Below are positions 20,778 to 45,593 of a stretch of 64,000 bases of DNA, piece after piece. The stretch is from the NCBI RefSeq assembly GCF_044324875.1, contig NZ_CP172185.1. The stretch is one strand, 5' to 3'. Made by a program: the position numbers and the translations under genes. Every line of letters begins with the position of its first letter. Position 1 is the first letter of the stretch. The notes beneath the pieces are model-generated. The model worked only from the letters and a program-made list of their open reading frames with translations, searched no databases and had not been told where the DNA came from. Source of the DNA: Escherichia coli. Lineage in GTDB: Bacteria > Pseudomonadota > Gammaproteobacteria > Enterobacterales > Enterobacteriaceae.

Positions 20778-20792
20778 TACATGTTGTAGCAA

Positions 20793-20827
20793 CCCTGCAC
20801 TGATTATGAAGAATAATCAGTGCAGGG
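20793..20827. terminator. strong stem-loop downstream of gss (perfect 15-bp inverted repeat)
   Basis: CCCTGCACTGATTAT gaaga ATAATCAGTGCAGGG; no clear U-tract, so terminator function is uncertain. Confidence 0.35.
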
Positions 20828-21068
20828 ATTAATCAAAATATTCAATATTTATATATTCCAATATTTATTCATTTCATATGTGAATGTATTAACCAGTGGA
20901 ATACCTGTGTTTTGATTATTTCTAAAGGTTTTGAATGAATGCTTATTATCTGATACACAAGAAATAACACGCTTTTTATCGTTAAAAAATGATATTTCAC
21001 TTTGCCCACGCCGTTAAAGTCACTGATAATGCGTCCGTTCGTAAATTCAAAATGGCGTAATCTAATAT

Positions 21069-22568
21069 ATGCTAAATTTATTTGTTGGCCTTGATATATA
21101 CACGGGGCTTTTGTTATTACTTGCTCTGGCATTTGTGTTGTTCTACGAAGCAATCAATGGTTTTCATGATACGGCGAATGCGGTGGCAACCGTTATTTAT
21201 ACTCGTGCCATGCAACCACAACTTGCTGTGGTGATGGCGGCATTTTTTAACTTTTTTGGCGTATTGCTAGGCGGACTTAGCGTTGCCTATGCCATTGTCC
21301 ATATGTTGCCAACCGATTTGTTGCTGAATATGGGGTCAACTCACGGCCTGGCGATGGTCTTTTCCATGCTGCTGGCGGCGATTATCTGGAACCTGGGAAC
21401 GTGGTTCTTTGGTTTACCGGCCTCCAGTTCGCATACCTTGATTGGTGCGATTATCGGCATCGGTTTAACCAACGCGCTGTTAACCGGCTCATCGGTGATG
21501 GATGCGTTAAACCTGCGTGAAGTGACCAAAATTTTCTCCTCGCTGATTGTTTCCCCTATCGTCGGCCTGGTCATTGCGGGAGGTCTGATATTCCTGCTGC
21601 GCCGCTACTGGAGCGGGACGAAAAAGCGTGACCGTATTCACCGCATTCCGGAAGATCGCAAAAAGAAAAAAGGCAAACGTAAGCCACCATTCTGGACGCG
21701 TATTGCGCTGATTGTTTCCGCTGCGGGCGTGGCGTTTTCGCACGGCGCGAACGACGGGCAGAAAGGGATCGGCCTGGTGATGCTGGTACTGGTGGGGATT
21801 GCTCCTGCTGGTTTCGTCGTCAATATGAATGCGTCCGGCTATGAAATTACCCGTACCCGCGATGCCGTCACCAACTTTGAACACTATCTGCAACAGCATC
21901 CTGAACTGCCGCAGAAGTTAATTGCGATGGAACCTCCATTGCCTGCGGCATCGACTGATGGCACGCAAGTAACGGAGTTTCATTGTCATCCGGCAAATAC
22001 CTTTGATGCGATTGCGCGCGTTAAAACGATGTTGCCAGGTAATATGGAAAGCTACGAGCCGTTAAGCGTGAGTCAGCGCAGCCAGCTGCGCCGCATTATG
22101 CTGTGCATCTCTGATACCTCTGCGAAGCTGGCGAAACTGCCAGGCGTCAGTAAAGAAGATCAGAACCTGCTGAAAAAACTGCGCAGCGATATGTTAAGCA
22201 CCATTGAGTACGCTCCGGTGTGGATCATCATGGCGGTAGCACTGGCGCTCGGCATTGGTACCATGATTGGCTGGCGTCGTGTAGCGATGACCATCGGTGA
22301 GAAGATTGGTAAGCGCGGCATGACGTATGCGCAAGGGATGGCGGCGCAGATGACGGCGGCGGTATCTATCGGCCTTGCCAGTTATATTGGGATGCCTGTT
22401 TCCACAACACACGTCCTCTCGTCTGCGGTAGCAGGGACGATGGTGGTGGACGGCGGTGGGTTACAGCGTAAAACGGTAACCAGCATCCTGATGGCGTGGG
22501 TGTTTACTTTACCGGCGGCGATTTTTCTGTCTGGTGGGTTGTACTGGATAGCATTGCAGTTGATTTAA
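21069..22568 (+). CDS. pitB: low-affinity inorganic phosphate transporter (PiT family)
   Basis: 499-aa polytopic [51 protein letters not shown]... Confidence 0.9.
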
Positions 22569-23309: not shown

Positions 23310-23482
23310 GAATATATCCTTTAATTTAAATATCCATTAAAAATATTTATTTGGTTAATATGTTTTTATGAAAGCGTAATTCAGGTCAATGTCACAATTA
23401 ACCATTGTCACAATAAGGTTGAACGGATATTCTGAGCACGGACCACGTAATATTCAATACATTATTTGCTGCCGGGTTTTTC

Positions 23483-24196
23483 GTGAATCAACGTAATATG
23501 TCAATAATTAATTCCACGCCAGTGCGTGTTATTGCCATTGTAGGATGTGATGGTTCAGGTAAATCGACCCTCACGGCAAGCCTGGTAAATGAACTGGCAG
23601 CAAGAATGCCAACAGAACACATTTATCTCGGGCAATCGTCCGGGCGAATTGGCGAATGGATTTCACAGCTCCCTGTTATTGGCGCACCTTTTGGGCGTTA
23701 TCTGCGAAGTAAAGCGGCACATGTGCACGAAAAGCCCTCAACACCGCCTGGCAATATTACTGCGCTGGTTATCTATCTGCTTTCCTGCTGGCGGGCGTAT
23801 AAGTTTCGCAAAATGTTGTGTAAAAGCCAGCAAGGCTATCTGCTCATCACCGACCGCTACCCGCAGGTTGAAGTGCCGGGTTTTCGCTTTGATGGCCCGC
23901 AATTGGCAAAAACCACGGGCGGTAACGGTTGGATAAAAATGTTAAGGCAGCGCGAGCTGAAGCTGTACCAATGGATGGCGTCTTATTTGCCCGTATTGTT
24001 GATTCGTCTTGGCATTGATGAACAAACGGCGTTTGCGCGTAAACCTGACCACCAACTGGCGGCGTTACAGGAAAAAATCGCCGTTACGCCGCAACTGACA
24101 TTCAATGGCGCAAAGATCCTTGAACTGGATGGTCGGCAACCAGCCGATGAAATTATGCAAGCGTCACTACGCGCAATTCACGCCGCGCTTTCCTGA
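23483..24196 (+). CDS. yghS: P-loop NTPase/kinase-like protein (paralogue of YghT/YghR)
   Basis: 237-aa ORF (GTG start as printed; alternative ATG 15 nt downstream at MSIINSTP); Walker A GCDGSGKST. Confidence 0.85.
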   Translation: MNQRNMSIINSTPVRVIAIVGCDGSGKSTLTASLVNELAARMPTEHIYLGQSSGRIGEWISQLPVIGAPFGRYLRSKAAHVHEKPSTPPGNITALVIYLLSCWRAYKFRKMLCKSQQGYLLITDRYPQVEVPGFRFDGPQLAKTTGGNGWIKMLRQRELKLYQWMASYLPVLLIRLGIDEQTAFARKPDHQLAALQEKIAVTPQLTFNGAKILELDGRQPADEIMQASLRAIHAALS

Positions 24197-29988: not shown

Positions 29989-31161
29989 TTACTGCTTCAG
30001 AGTAGCGAACGCTTGAATGATGGCATCAATTTGCTCACGACTGTGGGCAGCGTTTACGCTACAGCGCAGCAGCGTGATGCCTGCAGGCGCGGCAGGTGGC
30101 AGGATAAGATTCACATAAACGCCCAGCGAAATAAGCTCGCGCCAGATGCGTAAACCTTCCTCTTTCGAACCGATTATTACTGGCACTACCGGGCTAATAT
30201 GTGAACTTAACTCATAACCCAGTTTTTGCAGACCGTCATACAGATGGTTGGCATTATCCATCAGCTTTTGCCGCAACTCTGGTTGTGTAGCAATGGTTCT
30301 TAACGACGAGCGCACGGTCGCAATGCAGGACGGAGAAGGAGAGGCGGTAAAAATATACGGGCGGCTGCCGTAGCGCAGCACTTCCATCGCTTCCGAACCG
30401 ACAGCAAAACCGCCAATCGAGGCCAGACTTTTACTGAAAGTACCAACGATAATATCCACATCATCTTCAACGCCAACGGCTTCAGCCAGTCCGCGCCCCG
30501 TTGCGCCTAACACGCCAAACGAATGCGCTTCATCGACAATCAAATAACCACCGAGACGACGTTTGATATCAACAATTTCCGCCAGCGGCGCAACGTCACC
30601 GAGCATACTGTAGATGCCTTCAACGATGATAATCGCCTCTTTTGCCCGTTCACCGAGGCGAACCATGCGCCGTTCCAGATCTTTAGCATCGTTATGGCGG
30701 AAACGAATAATTTCCGCGCCACCGAGAGAACAGGCGTCATAAATACTGGCGTGGCTGTCGGCATCCAGTAACACCACGGCGTTATGGTCGGCAAGTGCGC
30801 TGATGACGCCTAAATTAGCGGTATAACCGGTTGAAAAAACGATAGCGGTAGGGCGATTAAAAAACTCGGCGATCTCTTTCTCTAACGCCAGATGCGGCGC
30901 ATAACTGCCGTTTGCCATACGAGAACCGGTGGTGCCGGTGCCTTGGGCCGCTAACGCTGCCTGACCTTCGGCGATGGCATCATGATTGAAGGTTAATCCG
31001 AGATAATTATTGGTCCCGGCCAGAATCACTTTTTTATTGCCGATCCGGCCTTCGGTGGCGGAATACACTTCATCAATACAGGTACCAAACGGCGTTAACC
31101 CGTTGTCACTAAATTGCAGTCGCTCGCCAGCAAGACGCGCATATTTATCGTATAGCCCCAT
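29989..31161 (-). CDS. PLP-dependent alpha-oxoamine synthase, serine-palmitoyltransferase-like
   Basis: 390 aa; motifs DEAHSFG and VGTFSKSLASIGGF (PLP lysine about residue 244, codon near 30430..30432). Confidence 0.8.
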   Translation of the reverse strand: MGLYDKYARLAGERLQFSDNGLTPFGTCIDEVYSATEGRIGNKKVILAGTNNYLGLTFNHDAIAEGQAALAAQGTGTTGSRMANGSYAPHLALEKEIAEFFNRPTAIVFSTGYTANLGVISALADHNAVVLLDADSHASIYDACSLGGAEIIRFRHNDAKDLERRMVRLGERAKEAIIIVEGIYSMLGDVAPLAEIVDIKRRLGGYLIVDEAHSFGVLGATGRGLAEAVGVEDDVDIIVGTFSKSLASIGGFAVGSEAMEVLRYGSRPYIFTASPSPSCIATVRSSLRTIATQPELRQKLMDNANHLYDGLQKLGYELSSHISPVVPVIIGSKEEGLRIWRELISLGVYVNLILPPAAPAGITLLRCSVNAAHSREQIDAIIQAFATLKQ

Positions 31162-31409
31162 TATTTATTCTCCAGCCATGGAAGTAGTGTTTCCATTAAT
31201 TGCGCAGGGGTTTTGACATCCAGCAGAATATTAATAGGAATGGAAATATCGAATCTGTCTTCCAGCATCATTAAGAGATCCATCACTTTGATCGACTCCA
31301 GGCCAAGATCGTTGACGAGATCGCTGTCGGGCTTAATTTCCACACCGTTTTCGACCAAATCCTGTAAACAGGAAAGGATGTAATCCATTACTATTTCACG
31401 ATTTACCAT
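31161..31409 (-). CDS. acyl carrier protein (dedicated, 82 aa)
   Basis: Small acidic protein with DLGLESIKVMDL (candidate phosphopantetheine serine); stop overlaps the downstream synthase start. Confidence 0.7.
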   Translation of the reverse strand: MVNREIVMDYILSCLQDLVENGVEIKPDSDLVNDLGLESIKVMDLLMMLEDRFDISIPINILLDVKTPAQLMETLLPWLENK

Positions 31410-31440
31410 AGAAACGTTAACACACCTTTAAACAAGACAA

Positions 31441-32355
31441 TCAAAATAGCCCGTTGCGTAATGCGTGTTCCAGGCTAATCCCGGGAAACCAATTAATATC
31501 TTCAGAAATACGGTTATTACTTGCTGACCAGTCGGCGTGGGTTAATTCACGGATTTTCGAGCGGGTCAGCATAGGTTCTTTACCTGCCAGGCGACTCAAC
31601 GTGGTACTGATATCCGCAAGGCAGGTGAGTACCGACAGAGGAATACCAACCATTCGAACGGAACCACAACGGGCGTCGGCGGCAAGCTGTCTTACGCGTT
31701 GCCAGTCATAGCCGCCGGCGACGCCATCGCATAATTCATAGGTTTGCGTCTGTACAGTTTCGGCGCTTAACCACTGCCCCACGGCTTGCGCGAAATCGGT
31801 GACGTGCAGGAAAGAGAGCTGTGTATCTGGCGCACCAAGTCGTGGCAGTAGGCCGCGCAGCATCCAGTCAAACAGCGGTTTTAACTCTTTATCGCCGGGA
31901 CCATACACGGCTGTCGGGCGAAAAATGCCCAGCGTAATTTCGTCAGCCATTGCGGTCAGTCGTTGTTCGGCGACGTGTTTGGAATTTGCGTACCAGGAGA
32001 GTTCGGGATGGCGCGCCGCCAGCGAAGAGATAAACAGAAAACGTTGGCAAAAGCCGCTCTCTTTTGCCGCTTGCATCAGGCGCAGGCTGCCGTCAACGTT
32101 ACAGCGGGTAAAAATCTCTTCTTTGTGTCCGCGCACTTGTCCGGCGCAATGGACCACCGCGCTGGCTCCGGCAACCAGTTCGCTAAGCGAATGTGTATCT
32201 TCCAGCGAACCGCGCACCCAGATGAGATTATCATTGACGTGAGCGCGGGCAGTACGCGTCAATGCGCGAACGTGAAAGCCGCGGGCGAGCAGGTTATCGA
32301 TAATATATTTACCGATAAACCCGGTAGCGCCCGTCACCGCGACAGTTTGATTCAT
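31441..32355 (-). CDS. NAD(P)-dependent epimerase/dehydratase-family (extended SDR) oxidoreductase, putative keto-reductase
   Basis: 304 aa; Rossmann VTGATGFIGKYI, catalytic YANSK; start overlaps upstream ligase stop by 4 nt. Confidence 0.75.
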   Translation of the reverse strand: MNQTVAVTGATGFIGKYIIDNLLARGFHVRALTRTARAHVNDNLIWVRGSLEDTHSLSELVAGASAVVHCAGQVRGHKEEIFTRCNVDGSLRLMQAAKESGFCQRFLFISSLAARHPELSWYANSKHVAEQRLTAMADEITLGIFRPTAVYGPGDKELKPLFDWMLRGLLPRLGAPDTQLSFLHVTDFAQAVGQWLSAETVQTQTYELCDGVAGGYDWQRVRQLAADARCGSVRMVGIPLSVLTCLADISTTLSRLAGKEPMLTRSKIRELTHADWSASNNRISEDINWFPGISLEHALRNGLF

Positions 32356-34073
32356 GCCAGGGATTCCTGCACATGAAGGCTTGCAGCATAAGCCTTCTGA
32401 TAGCGTTTTTTCGCTTCCGCACGGGCAGGCTTGCCGGAGGACGTTCGGGGAATACTGTGGGGCGGCAACAGATCGATAGCCGCGGTCACGCCAAATTCGC
32501 TTTGGATCCGTGCTGCCAGCGCGTGGATAAGCTGCCCGCGACGTTCTTCATCGCTGATCCGACACTGGATCTGCAAAATGATTTTTTCCTGGGCGGTAAC
32601 AAAAGCAATCGCATCGCCAGAATGAATTTCCGGTTCCTGTTCCGCAATATATTCAATATCTTGCGGCCAGATATTGCGGCCACGAATAATAATCAGATCT
32701 TTAATGCGTCCGGTGACATACAGATAACCGTCCAGCAGATAACCGAGGTCGCCGGTGTCTAACCAGCCCGTCGCGGCAATCTCGTCTTGTGAAATCTGGT
32801 CGCCAAAGTAACCGCTCATCAGGCTAGGGCCGGAGATGCAAATATGGCCTACCACACGTTCCGCGACAGGTATACCTGCTTCATTGCGGATTTCAATGCC
32901 ATGTTCCGGCAACGCTTTACCGCAGTTGACGAAAGTCGATACGGCGCGTGTTTCAGCATCCGGCGCGACGGCTTTGCCCTGATATTCGAGGATGTCGCGA
33001 TCCACTTCGTTAACCACAACCCCGGAAGCTTCATCAGAGAAGCTGACAGCCAGCGCATTTTCTGCCAGTCCGTAGCACGGCATGAACGTTTTATCGTCAA
33101 AGTTAACCTGACGAAAACATTCAGCGAATTGATGGAGTTGTTCTGCGGAGATCGGTTCTGCGCCAATACCAGCGACGCGCCAGCAGGAAAGATCCAGTTC
33201 AGCGAGATCTTTTTCATTCACGCGGCGCTGGCACAATTCATAGCCAAACGGCGGCGCAACGGAAACGGTGCCGCGATTTTTACTGATCAATTTAAGCCAT
33301 TGCAGAGGACGCATGGCAAAATCCTGAGTGCGCAAATAATCTACTGAGAGCTGCGTGGCGACGGGGGTCAGGAGAAAGCCGACCAGTCCCATATCATGGT
33401 AGAAAGGCAGCCAGGAGACGCAGCGGTCGCCAGGGCGTAATTTAATGCCATCGTGGCTTATAGCACGTAGATTAGCCATCACTTCGCGATGGGTGATAAT
33501 GACGCCACGGGGAAAACGGGTGCTGCCGGAGGTGTACTGGAGGTAGGCGATATCGTTCGGAACTGGACGCTGGAGTGCAACATCGGCTTCCGGTAATGCC
33601 TTAAACCAGGCGTGGCTTAAAACATGTAATTCGGGTTTGTTATGCGTCGCGGCATTGACCAGCGGTAACCACTCATCACCAGTGATAATGGCTGCGGGCT
33701 GGCAACTTGCCAGTAAACCCTGCAGTTTGGCGCTCCAGGAATCCCGCTGACCGACGCCCATTGGAATCGCCAACGGGACGGCGACTAAGCCGGCATACTG
33801 GCAGGAAAAAAAAGCCTCTACGAACCCGCTACTGGTTTCGGCAATCAGCGCCACGCGATCGCCTTTTTTCAGGTTCAGCGATAACAACCGCTTCGCACCA
33901 GCTTCGGCACGCGCTTTTAACGTCTGATATTCCAGTTGATCTTCAAGTTGGCAACGTCTGTCATAAAAATTCATTCCGGCGCTACTCAGAGCGGCGTAGT
34001 CCAAAGCATCAACCAGCGTTGGAAAATCGGCATAGCGCATAGGTAGGGAATGCGTAAAGATTTTATTAGACAT
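32352..34073 (-). CDS. fatty acyl-AMP ligase / acyl-ACP synthetase-type adenylating enzyme
   Basis: Track ORF 32352..34100 (582 aa); AMP-binding motif YTSGSTRFPRGV. Start uncertain (candidates at 34100, 34073, 34040); 34073 ATG chosen. Confidence 0.75.
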   Translation of the reverse strand: MSNKIFTHSLPMRYADFPTLVDALDYAALSSAGMNFYDRRCQLEDQLEYQTLKARAEAGAKRLLSLNLKKGDRVALIAETSSGFVEAFFSCQYAGLVAVPLAIPMGVGQRDSWSAKLQGLLASCQPAAIITGDEWLPLVNAATHNKPELHVLSHAWFKALPEADVALQRPVPNDIAYLQYTSGSTRFPRGVIITHREVMANLRAISHDGIKLRPGDRCVSWLPFYHDMGLVGFLLTPVATQLSVDYLRTQDFAMRPLQWLKLISKNRGTVSVAPPFGYELCQRRVNEKDLAELDLSCWRVAGIGAEPISAEQLHQFAECFRQVNFDDKTFMPCYGLAENALAVSFSDEASGVVVNEVDRDILEYQGKAVAPDAETRAVSTFVNCGKALPEHGIEIRNEAGIPVAERVVGHICISGPSLMSGYFGDQISQDEIAATGWLDTGDLGYLLDGYLYVTGRIKDLIIIRGRNIWPQDIEYIAEQEPEIHSGDAIAFVTAQEKIILQIQCRISDEERRGQLIHALAARIQSEFGVTAAIDLLPPHSIPRTSSGKPARAEAKKRYQKAYAASLHVQESLA

Positions 34074-34444
34074 ATACACCACGAAAAAATTGGATATCAA
34101 AAATAAAATGACAATAATGCGGTGGATTATATAGGCATAAAAGATAAATGAGATAGTATTTTCATCAGTGTGAAAATGAACATTGATTTAAATAATGAGT
34201 TTGAGTTTTTTTGTTTTTATTGTGAATGATATTTAATTTATGAATGTATTAAGAAGAAGCCTTGTCCGGTCGCCTTAAATCGACAAAAGGCATTGTGGCG
34301 CTTCTGTGTAGTCTCTGACCTTATCGTAATCATTAATAAATACTATTTATTCGTCGTTTGTATTCATTGGGTTGATTATTAAGGTGCCGTTCGTTGCTGT
34401 TGCAACCTGTTTGTCACCGTTAATTATTTGTTACCCACAGAACT
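34074..34444. promoter_or_regulatory. AT-rich divergent control region between the ligase operon and yghO
   Basis: About 370 bp non-coding and strongly AT-rich, between divergently oriented starts. Confidence 0.45.
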
Positions 34445-35587
34445 ATGGAATGCGATCTGCTGATGATTAAAATTGAAAAAGTAATTAATAAAAATGACCT
34501 TAAGGCATTTATCGCTTTTCCGTCATCACTTTATCCCGACGATCCAAACTGGATACCCCCTTTATTCATTGAACGCAACGAGCATTTGTCTGCGAAAAAT
34601 CCGGGGACGGACCATATCATCTGGCAGGCGTGGGTGGCAAAAAAAGCAGGGCAGATAGTTGGGCGTATTACCGCGCAAATCGATACCTTGCACCGCGAGC
34701 GTTACGGCAAAGATACCGGTCATTTCGGCATGATTGACGCCATTGATGATCCGCAGGTTTTTGCCGCGTTGTTTGGCGCAGCGGAAGCGTGGTTGAAGTC
34801 ACAAGGTGCAAGTAAGATCAGCGGTCCTTTCAGCCTGAATATCAATCAGGAAAGCGGATTACTGATTGAAGGTTTCGATACACCACCCTGTGCGATGATG
34901 CCACACGGCAAACCGTGGTATGCCGCGCATATTGAACAATTGGGTTATCACAAAGGCATTGATTTACTGGCGTGGTGGATGCAGCGAACCGATCTCACTT
35001 TCTCTCCGGCCCTAAAAAAACTGATGGATCAGGTGCGCAAAAAAGTGACCATTCGCTGCATCAATCGCCAGCGGTTTGCCGAAGAGATGCAGATCCTGCG
35101 TGAGATTTTCAACTCTGGCTGGCAGCATAACTGGGGATTTGTGCCGTTTACCGAACATGAGTTCGCGACTATGGGCGATCAGCTTAAGTACCTGGTGCCG
35201 GACGATATGATCTACATCGCCGAGATTGATTCTGCACCCTGTGCGTTTATTGTCGGCTTACCGAACATCAACGAGGCGATTGCCGATCTGAACGGATCGC
35301 TCTTTCCCTTCGGCTGGGCAAAATTGCTGTGGCGTTTAAAAGTCAGCGGTGTGCGAACTGCGCGAGTACCGCTGATGGGCGTGCGGGACGAGTATCAGTT
35401 TAGCCGCATCGGCCCGGTGATTGCGCTGTTATTGATTGAAGCCTTACGCGATCCGTTTGCCCGCCGGAAGATCGATGCGCTGGAAATGTCATGGATCCTC
35501 GAAACCAATATAGGCATGAATAACATGCTGGAACGCATTGGGGCGGAGCCGTACAAGCGTTACCGATTGTATGAAAAGCAGATTTAA
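34445..35587 (+). CDS. yghO: YghO-family protein, predicted acyl-CoA N-acyltransferase-like fold (intact here)
   Basis: 380-aa ORF MECDLLMIKIEKVINKNDLKAFIAFPSS... adjacent to glcC as yghO is in K-12; fold assignment is from memory. Confidence 0.65.
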   Translation: MECDLLMIKIEKVINKNDLKAFIAFPSSLYPDDPNWIPPLFIERNEHLSAKNPGTDHIIWQAWVAKKAGQIVGRITAQIDTLHRERYGKDTGHFGMIDAIDDPQVFAALFGAAEAWLKSQGASKISGPFSLNINQESGLLIEGFDTPPCAMMPHGKPWYAAHIEQLGYHKGIDLLAWWMQRTDLTFSPALKKLMDQVRKKVTIRCINRQRFAEEMQILREIFNSGWQHNWGFVPFTEHEFATMGDQLKYLVPDDMIYIAEIDSAPCAFIVGLPNINEAIADLNGSLFPFGWAKLLWRLKVSGVRTARVPLMGVRDEYQFSRIGPVIALLLIEALRDPFARRKIDALEMSWILETNIGMNNMLERIGAEPYKRYRLYEKQI

Positions 35588-45108: not shown

Positions 45109-45117
45109 GTCAATAAT

Positions 45118-45144
45118 GCCGGATGATCGTTAATATCATCCGGC
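45118..45144. terminator. hairpin after glcA (end of glc operon)
   Basis: GCCGGATGAT cgttaat ATCATCCGGC, perfect 10-bp stem. Confidence 0.45.
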
Positions 45145-45593
45145 TACATTTACATTATTCTGTCTTATTAATTGAAAATTATTTCCCTCTTTATTATCCA
45201 TGCAGCAATAATGTTTTGCGTTCAGATAACCTGCTAAATAATTAAGAACGTGAGAATATCTATTTTTTTTATCACGCAAAACAAGTTTGTACTAATTATG
45301 TTCGCTTGATGAGCAAACACCGTGCTATCTGTTGCTTTTGCAATCGCAATCGTTAAAACTATCAACAACTTGGGATAGTTACATTGTGAATAATTGTTAC
45401 TTTTTTGTTTGTTGAATCTTTTTATAAATACCCCGTCTGACATCGAATAGGGGATATTCTTATAAATTTCACCTGTTTCGTTATCAATAATGCAGTTTTT
45501 TAAGAATGGAGGAAGTTATTAGAGAAGATAAAGCATAAAACTATTTCTCCCAGTTACGAATTTTTTAACATTGTTTTGTCACTTGCGTTATTA

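Follow-up and report, generated by a model that had tools for sequence, protein, structure and literature searches.

The 371-bp spacer that separates aasR and yghO in Escherichia coli (positions 34074-34444 of a 64,000-nt window of contig NZ_CP172185.1, assembly GCF_044324875.1) is very probably the operative control region of both transcription units that diverge from it. It comprises the whole non-coding interval between the two start codons, which are arranged head to head. The genes on either side make up the known sphingolipid/ceramide locus of E. coli, with the operon aasR-epi-acpR-spt on the left (minus strand) and yghO on the right (plus strand). Since the leftward operon and yghO form one pathway, the spacer is to be regarded as its divergent control region. 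A preceding sequence-only reading had proposed such a region for the lipid operon and yghO, and this proposal is supported: the spacer is the sole non-coding DNA between the head-to-head units, the order of spt, acpR, epi and aasR (leftwards) and yghO (rightwards) is retained in about 40 species of Enterobacterales and in two Pseudomonas, and the spacer contains a 97-bp constrained block with an invariant TATAAT. The same reading had suggested that the region is silenced by H-NS and off under laboratory conditions, which is plausible. The best explanation of the data, for and against which the odds appear even, is a shared control region of divergent ceramide units whose weak promoters would be occluded by H-NS and StpA and relieved by a signal or factor.

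The spacer has a guanine + cytosine (GC) content of 31.8%, compared with 51.8% for the window. Just 0.7% of all 371-bp segments across the 64 kb have a GC content this low or lower, and inside the spacer a minimum of 22% is reached over 150 bp. In a 200-bp GC profile, the full AT-rich tract extends from 33950 to 34560 and thus about 100 bp into each flanking coding region (0.435 at 33900-34099, 0.285 at 34100-34299, 0.37 at 34400-34599 and about 0.5 outside the tract). The earlier description of about 370 bp of AT-rich, homopolymer-containing DNA between divergent starts is accurate in its limits and composition. The homopolymers are present but all short (A6 at 34084, A5 at 34099, T7 at 34206 and T5 at 34214). 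Open reading frames of at least 20 aa that lie fully within the spacer are limited to two, of 29 and 31 aa; a separate 32-aa frame runs over the yghO start.

Conservation within Escherichia was assessed in an alignment of seven sequences (E. coli, BL21, JJ1887, E. whittamii and three cryptic-clade genomes). Third codon positions, of which 252 of 400 columns are invariant (63%), served as the yardstick. The aasR-proximal part, here termed block A (34074-34170, minus strand), has 92 of 97 columns invariant (95%, Fisher p = 1.8e-11), a level that matches the conservation of first and second codon positions. The centre of the spacer (34196-34320) is hypervariable, with 45% of its columns invariant, below third codon positions (p = 4e-4). 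It holds the T7 and T5 runs (34206-34218) and an island of normal GC content (34255-34320). The yghO-proximal third (34346-34444), with 58% invariant columns, does not differ from third codon positions. Beyond Escherichia, part of block A can be recognised in Pseudocitrobacter as CTTTTATGnCnATATAAY, about as far from the aasR start. Conservation as extreme as that of block A speaks for at least one sequence-specific factor acting there, and the constraint probably reflects sequence-specific protein binding.

Block A is taken to be the core promoter and 5' leader of the aasR operon. The candidate -10 element is a perfect TATAAT hexamer (34126-34131, minus strand) that is invariant in all Escherichia and is accompanied, 17 bp away, by a weak -35-like hexamer, ATCTCA (3/6; 34149-34154, minus strand). 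Its position weight matrix (PWM) score of 7.5 is below the maximum found in shuffled sequences (mean 9.85), and conservation is therefore the only argument for the assignment. With this element, aasR transcription would most likely start near 34119 and yield a leader of about 46 nt, predicted to be unstructured and AU-rich. The putative ribosome-binding site is a Shine-Dalgarno-like GGUG within the GUGGUG found by sequence inspection 5' of the aasR ATG (34077-34082, minus strand), which also offers possible alternative GTG starts. Promoter, leader and about 50 bp upstream of them would together make up the 97-bp block under strong purifying selection. The minus-strand candidate with the top score, TTCACA-17-CAAACT (34226/34203), was dropped because its -10 element is not conserved in Escherichia.

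The start codon of aasR is itself ambiguous. It is placed at ATG 34073 in the genome annotation and at ATG 34040 in the annotations of JJ1887, BL21 and H10407. The E. coli sequence GTG GTG TAT ATG (34082-34071) corresponds to ATG GTG TAT ATG in Citrobacter and Pseudocitrobacter, and many other genera carry ATGGCTnnTTTGTMT-ATG, which suggests an aasR start five codons further upstream. Block A also includes a 12-codon upstream open reading frame, MKILSHLSFMPI (34127-34165, minus strand), that is open in all Escherichia apart from a single Pro/His exchange. It lacks a ribosome-binding site, its stop codon is overlapped by the candidate -10 element, and translation is improbable.

The rightward promoter is ill-defined. 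A sigma-70 consensus scan of the spacer returned one weak plus-strand site, and the best candidate for a yghO promoter, CTGACC-18-AATACT (34315-34344, plus strand), has the top plus-strand PWM score (7.4), which is not significant. The yghO promoter is probably located around this position, with a predicted start near 34351 and a leader of about 94 nt. The candidate is overlapped by a palindrome, AATAAATA/TATTTATT (34335-34351), and in Citrobacter amalonaticus the corresponding position, 104 nt from the ATG, is that of the relatives' conserved motif described below. All Escherichia share a direct repeat, TGAAT(G/A)-N12-TGAAT(G/A), with 18-bp spacing (34223-34228 and 34241-34246, plus strand), where the hypervariable centre borders on its surroundings. 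This repeat is a possible protein-binding site and resembles no nameable operator. A sigma-54 site noted by eye, GGTGCC-N-TTGCT (34381-34403), was rejected for its wrong spacing. Phase variation by homopolymers was likewise discarded: the longest run is T7, while about 9 nt or more are needed, and strains differ by substitutions (TTTTGTTG). The centre of the spacer varies between strains by substitutions and small indels with unchanged tract length.

In the explanation favoured here, both promoters match the consensus poorly and are embedded in a tract of about 600 bp with 22-37% GC. H-NS together with StpA would coat this tract and thereby occlude both promoters in standard culture, and the locus would stay silent until a signal, or a factor acting on the conserved block, lifts the repression. 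Occupancy of the tract by H-NS and/or StpA is fairly probable. The chance that this occupancy chiefly accounts for the silence in culture is put at slightly less than even. The spacer equals in composition the glcA-sslE spacer of the same window (45109-45593; 30.9% GC), a documented target: H-NS and StpA bind the sslE promoter and repress it by preventing formation of the open complex, an effect that is strongest at 22 C (PMC5012682). In enterotoxigenic E. coli (ETEC) H10407, H-NS binding follows low GC content (PMC4287617). Insertions of the IS5 family of insertion sequences favour H-NS-bound E. coli DNA (PMC11335895; PMC11677980), a preference that fits the endpoints of the IS5 event in K-12 and the IS1 event in FORC_082, both within the AT-rich tract.

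Indirect evidence on the expression state comes from published biochemistry of BL21(DE3), in which the locus is intact and the spacer 99.5% identical to that of the window. Cells and extracts with empty vector contained no 3-oxo-sphinganine, beta-alanine labelling revealed the housekeeping acyl carrier protein (ACP) only and no AcpR band, and serine palmitoyltransferase (SPT) supplied alone from a plasmid gave no product (PMC9386255). The latter implies that the chromosomal aasR and acpR genes do not supply the substrate. Low constitutive expression, with incidental AT-richness and a minor or overlooked product, is improbable in view of these results. A perfect -10 hexamer would suit it, and about 76% of complete genomes have the genes intact and under purifying selection, which argues for regular use of the pathway.

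Several observations weigh against silencing by H-NS or are neutral. The BL21(DE3) data are consistent with a silent operon, but they are lipid and protein read-outs from one medium at 30 C and thus indirect. The high-affinity nucleation motif tCGATAAATT (Lang et al. 2007; PMC2094087) has only one match with two mismatches in the spacer (34235-34244), compared with 76 matches window-wide where 61.8 are expected. A-tracts show no helical phasing (AA/TT periodogram at 9.5-11.5 bp, 0.67 vs 0.74 for the null). Both tests fail to discriminate, however, since the sslE spacer as a known target fails them too. The AT-richness is moreover not exceptional locally: the GC content of the spacer is the fifth lowest among 13 local promoter spacers, five of which have 29-32%. 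Comparable regions of the 29-31% class are the gss-pitB spacer (20781-21071; 30.2%), the divergent yghT-yghS spacer (23313-23485; 30.6%), the glcA-sslE spacer and the AT-rich DNA past yghD (gspM), towards a pseudogene and a polysaccharide export gene (62050-62800). The coding genes have a normal GC content, so that the locus is no case of classical xenogeneic silencing of an AT-rich island. In the literature searched, no link was found between H-NS, PhoP or other regulators and yghO or spt in E. coli, nor did it yield direct data on H-NS occupancy of the spacer or on its expression in hns mutants. Finally, the best sigma-70 candidates on either strand score 7.4-9.2, compared with a shuffle maximum of 9.85 +/- 1.44, and with no promoter candidate above shuffles the silence could simply reflect a missing activator.

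This last point leads to the main rival explanation, in which the weak promoters need a regulator that reads the conserved block, H-NS plays no major part and the AT-richness is ordinary. It is possible but rather doubtful. Besides the promoter scores, the rival can draw on the four equally AT-rich neighbouring spacers and on the missing H-NS motif and curvature signals. Conservation of block A at the level of first and second codon positions is expected of sequence-specific sites, and specific operators, namely a perfect PhoP box and a motif of 15 nt, do exist in the orthologous spacers of other genera (see below). On the other hand, Escherichia offers neither a candidate regulator nor a recognisable operator, its best PhoP box match (9/12) being a chance score. 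A perfect TATAAT, furthermore, normally gives some basal activity unless it is repressed, and control by an activator is compatible with H-NS binding. A CRP half-site at 34169-34184 (7/10 core) was rejected, since JJ1887 and two cryptic clades, three of the seven Escherichia sequences aligned, have TGCGA in place of TGTGA. It also has no matching peak: none of the 111 published high-confidence peaks from CRP chromatin immunoprecipitation sequencing (ChIP-seq) in H10407 is near the spacer (PMC4287617). The 'ETEC-specific' CRP peak at 3442697 was rejected as a spacer site, because it belongs to the pheV island, some 70 kb away from the ceramide locus. This island of H10407 (L051:2329-15797) also carries an aryl-polyene-type lipid gene cluster.

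For comparison with relatives, a scan for YghO with one genome per species yielded 44 loci. The orthologous spacers are 270-1095 bp long, and in all 42 of them the GC content is 6.5-27 points below that of the flanking coding sequence. Outside Escherichia, 23 loci have a single copy of a 15-nt motif, GCATTWAGTGGTAAA, which is confined to the aasR-yghO spacer and invariably reads in the sense of yghO (e.g. L012:5866-5880, L008:7885-7899, L019:4433-4447 and L038:7678-7692, plus 19 further loci). It resembles an extended -10 element (TGgTAAAA) and is preceded by the conserved blocks AAGTGAA and TAAACAG. Its distance to the yghO ATG is about 260-360 nt in most genera with long spacers (about 290-316 nt in about a dozen loci, 491 nt once) and 104-180 nt in four genera with short spacers. 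In 11 loci, a perfect PhoP box, TGTTTA-N5-TGTTTA (12/12), is found in the sense of aasR, with invariant half-sites and variable 5-nt spacers. In all 11 it is located 70-72 nt from GCATTWAGTGGTAAA. These loci belong to Serratia (L012, L014-L017, L037 and L043, two clades), Tatumella (L019 and L046), Klebsiella indica (L021) and Pantoea (L038); in L012, for example, the box occupies spacer positions 334-350 on the minus strand. The conserved box suggests that the ceramide locus may be under PhoPQ control in Serratia, Tatumella, Pantoea and Klebsiella indica. The PhoPQ system governs outer-membrane lipid remodelling. No link between PhoP and bacterial spt genes was found in the literature searched.

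Escherichia spacers contain neither the GCATTWAGTGGTAAA motif nor the PhoP box. The GC-normal island, AAAAGGCATTGTGG, was considered as a counterpart of the relatives' motif and rejected, as it is not conserved in the cryptic clades. Direct PhoP/PhoQ control of the E. coli spacer, by analogy with the 11 relatives and their fixed arrangement of box and motif, is accordingly hardly credible: the best match of 9/12 is the commonest score in 2000 shuffles, and the single match of at least 11/12 in the 64-kb window, at 63575, is unrelated to the ceramide locus. A broader scheme would see the spacer family as an envelope-stress switch for enterobacterial ceramide synthesis, run by PhoP in Serratia, Pantoea, Tatumella and Klebsiella indica, through the box at its fixed distance from the -10-like motif, and rewired in Escherichia to a factor binding block A. 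Most E. coli strains would then make sphingolipids only under a host or stress signal that is absent from laboratory culture. This scheme is speculative and on balance unlikely.

Control at the RNA level was considered as a further alternative, in which an attenuator or riboswitch-like yghO leader would terminate transcription in the absence of a signal. In the E. coli spacer, a weak hairpin followed by a U-rich tail, TATTTGTTA (34378-34433, plus strand), lies about 20 nt 5' of the yghO ATG. The 61-nt segment with this hairpin folds at -12.6 kcal/mol. Much stronger terminator-like hairpins, CAATAAAC.../...GTTTATTG, of down to -22 kcal/mol and followed by T-runs, are located 15-23 nt before the yghO start in relatives, within the last 90 nt before the gene (L031:7582-7634, i.e. 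spacer positions 593-645, as well as L027, L007, L010, L011 and L040). They are found in Erwinia persicina (-22 kcal/mol), Shimwellia, Pluralibacter and two metagenome-assembled genomes, and one compensatory G-C/C-G swap distinguishes two Erwinia persicina genomes. Such hairpins might act as an attenuator or mark where a leader RNA ends, and the similar distance from motif to ATG in the dozen or so long-spacer loci mentioned above also counts in favour of control by the leader. For E. coli, nevertheless, control of this kind is very improbable. The hairpin is missing in two cryptic-clade sequences of Escherichia and in Serratia, and the aasR and yghO leaders of E. coli fold no better than shuffles (z = 0.00 and -1.62, the latter for the 126-nt yghO leader; neither significant). 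No Rfam match was obtained at E <= 1 over 33500-35000, nor at gathering thresholds in seven related loci. RNAalifold returned 0 consensus pairs for 17 leaders from relatives, and the yghO-proximal hairpins share no consensus RNA structure across genera. A small AGCA/UGCU hairpin noted by eye was dropped, as its register shifts between genera.

Among known systems, the sslE (yghJ)-gsp promoter is the closest parallel within the window. It shares with the aasR-yghO spacer the neighbourhood, a nearly identical GC content and length (371 bp for aasR-yghO vs 485 bp), many short A/T runs and control of an accessory, strain-variable envelope function. In contrast, binding and derepression have been demonstrated experimentally for sslE, while for the aasR-yghO spacer they are predictions; the sslE spacer is unidirectional, while that of aasR-yghO is divergent and carries the 97-bp ultra-conserved block. 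The bgl and proU systems are similar in their AT-rich regulatory DNA, weak promoters, laboratory silence and IS5/IS1 insertions. They differ in having high-affinity sites (tCGATAAATT; PMC2094087) as well as upstream and downstream silencers, compared with the one two-mismatch match of the spacer, and the insertion elements at the spacer caused deletions, not activation. Enteric promoters activated by PhoP carry (T/G)GTTTA-N5-(T/G)GTTTA, a box present in the spacers of Serratia, Tatumella, Pantoea and Klebsiella indica, not in those of Escherichia. In the spacers that have it, the box is separated by about 70 nt from the -10-like motif and reads in the sense of aasR, unlike canonical PhoP promoters with their box at the -35 position.

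The gene content, finally, matches that of the Caulobacter crescentus locus (ccna_01212-01226 / CC_1154-CC_1165), which has spt, a dedicated acpR, aasR, epi and aca, with paralogues of lptF/lptG in the vicinity. In a published genome comparison, C. crescentus and E. coli alone had the five ceramide genes in a cluster (PMC9386255). Caulobacter makes sphingolipids in ordinary culture, with relevance for its outer membrane, which E. coli is not known to do. The promoter DNA of the two loci has nothing in common, and regulation is described for neither in the literature searched.

The spacer is present at a coverage of at least 80% in 4136 of 5426 complete E. coli genomes (about 76%). By identity, its alleles fall into classes of at least 99% (1172 genomes), 95-99% (2458) and 90-95% (502, e.g. 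ST131 JJ1887). In ETEC H10407 the locus is intact, and the spacer (NC_017633.1:3513959-3514329) is 99.2% identical. Over the 2.6 kb compared, the window is 100% identical to E. coli strain ChlosBP-23-1. In K-12-type strains an IS5-linked deletion has removed all DNA from window position 34484 leftward into yghQ, and the IS5 sits at the 5' end of yghO. The junction at window position 34485 (L002:4952-6001) leaves a hybrid yghO, with everything from the truncated yghQ to the first 13 yghO codons gone. As K-12 has no spacer DNA, ChIP and transcriptome data from K-12 cannot speak to the H-NS idea. In FORC_082, a separate IS1-linked deletion runs from the gss-pitB spacer to the yghO-proximal end of the aasR-yghO spacer, at about 34405 (L050:3249-4001). 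BL21(DE3) (L049) differs from the window by a 5-bp duplication, ACAGA, just 5' of the yghO ATG (equivalent to 34437-34441) and by a single substitution in the conserved block, ATATCC for ATATCA. These differences could alter yghO translation in the strain behind the published biochemistry.

About three quarters of complete E. coli genomes thus carry an intact locus for ceramide synthesis and transport, and no report of ceramide production by E. coli was found in the literature searched. E. coli is regarded as a bacterium without sphingolipids, and K-12, the standard strain, has lost the genes. The spacer would be the place where use of the ceramide pathway is decided. As a kind, an AT-rich promoter spacer that is probably bound by nucleoid proteins is commonplace, and the H-NS reading is reasonable but generic. 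The spacer is of interest as the likely switch of a sphingolipid pathway that is widespread in E. coli yet apparently cryptic, and for its lineage-specific rewiring among relatives, where the PhoP box suggests that cation and antimicrobial-peptide sensing may be linked to bacterial sphingolipids. The handles gained are the exact limits of the region, 97 conserved bases, a likely promoter and the exclusion of K-12 data. Suitable strains are BL21, with its silent phenotype, and H10407, for which H-NS and CRP ChIP-seq reads from M9 fructose cultures at 37 C are public (ArrayExpress E-MTAB-2917).

The leftward ceramide operon (29989-34073, minus strand) was annotated with Pfam and NCBIfam. It consists of aasR, a fatty acyl-AMP ligase (FAAL)-type acyl-ACP synthetase (32352-34073; NF006624, 873 bits, cut-off 600), epi, an SDR/epimerase-family reductase (31441-32355; Epimerase/SDR match), acpR, a small acyl carrier protein (31161-31409; PP-binding match), and spt, the serine palmitoyltransferase (29989-31161; NCBIfam equivalog NF047599, 600.1 bits, cut-off 500). 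The corresponding genes of BL21(DE3), ECD_02851-02854, have been characterised biochemically as AasR, epi, AcpR and SPT of a Caulobacter-type ceramide pathway, and yghO (ECD_02850; 34445-35587, plus strand) has been named as aca, the putative N-acyltransferase of that pathway (PMC9386255, Fig. 9 legend). Paralogues of lptF and lptG adjoin spt; their homologues are required for sphingolipid transport in Caulobacter, in a study that also depicts the UTI89 locus (bioRxiv 10.64898/2026.04.12.717747).

YghO has zero matches in Pfam-A, NCBIfam and PDB sequences, also at permissive thresholds, and its role as an N-acyltransferase is therefore derived from the literature. The family that supplies the N-acyltransferase is without a curated model in these libraries. 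YghO identity is 70-98% over Enterobacterales and one full-length Pseudomonas locus, and 63% for a partial second Pseudomonas locus. Shimwellia pseudoproteus has an extra yghO-like gene on a second contig (L030; 74% identity) without an adjoining spt operon. A 430-bp contig labelled 'Macrococcus' (L045) holds a fragment that is 99% identical to E. coli YghO and looks like an assembly contamination.

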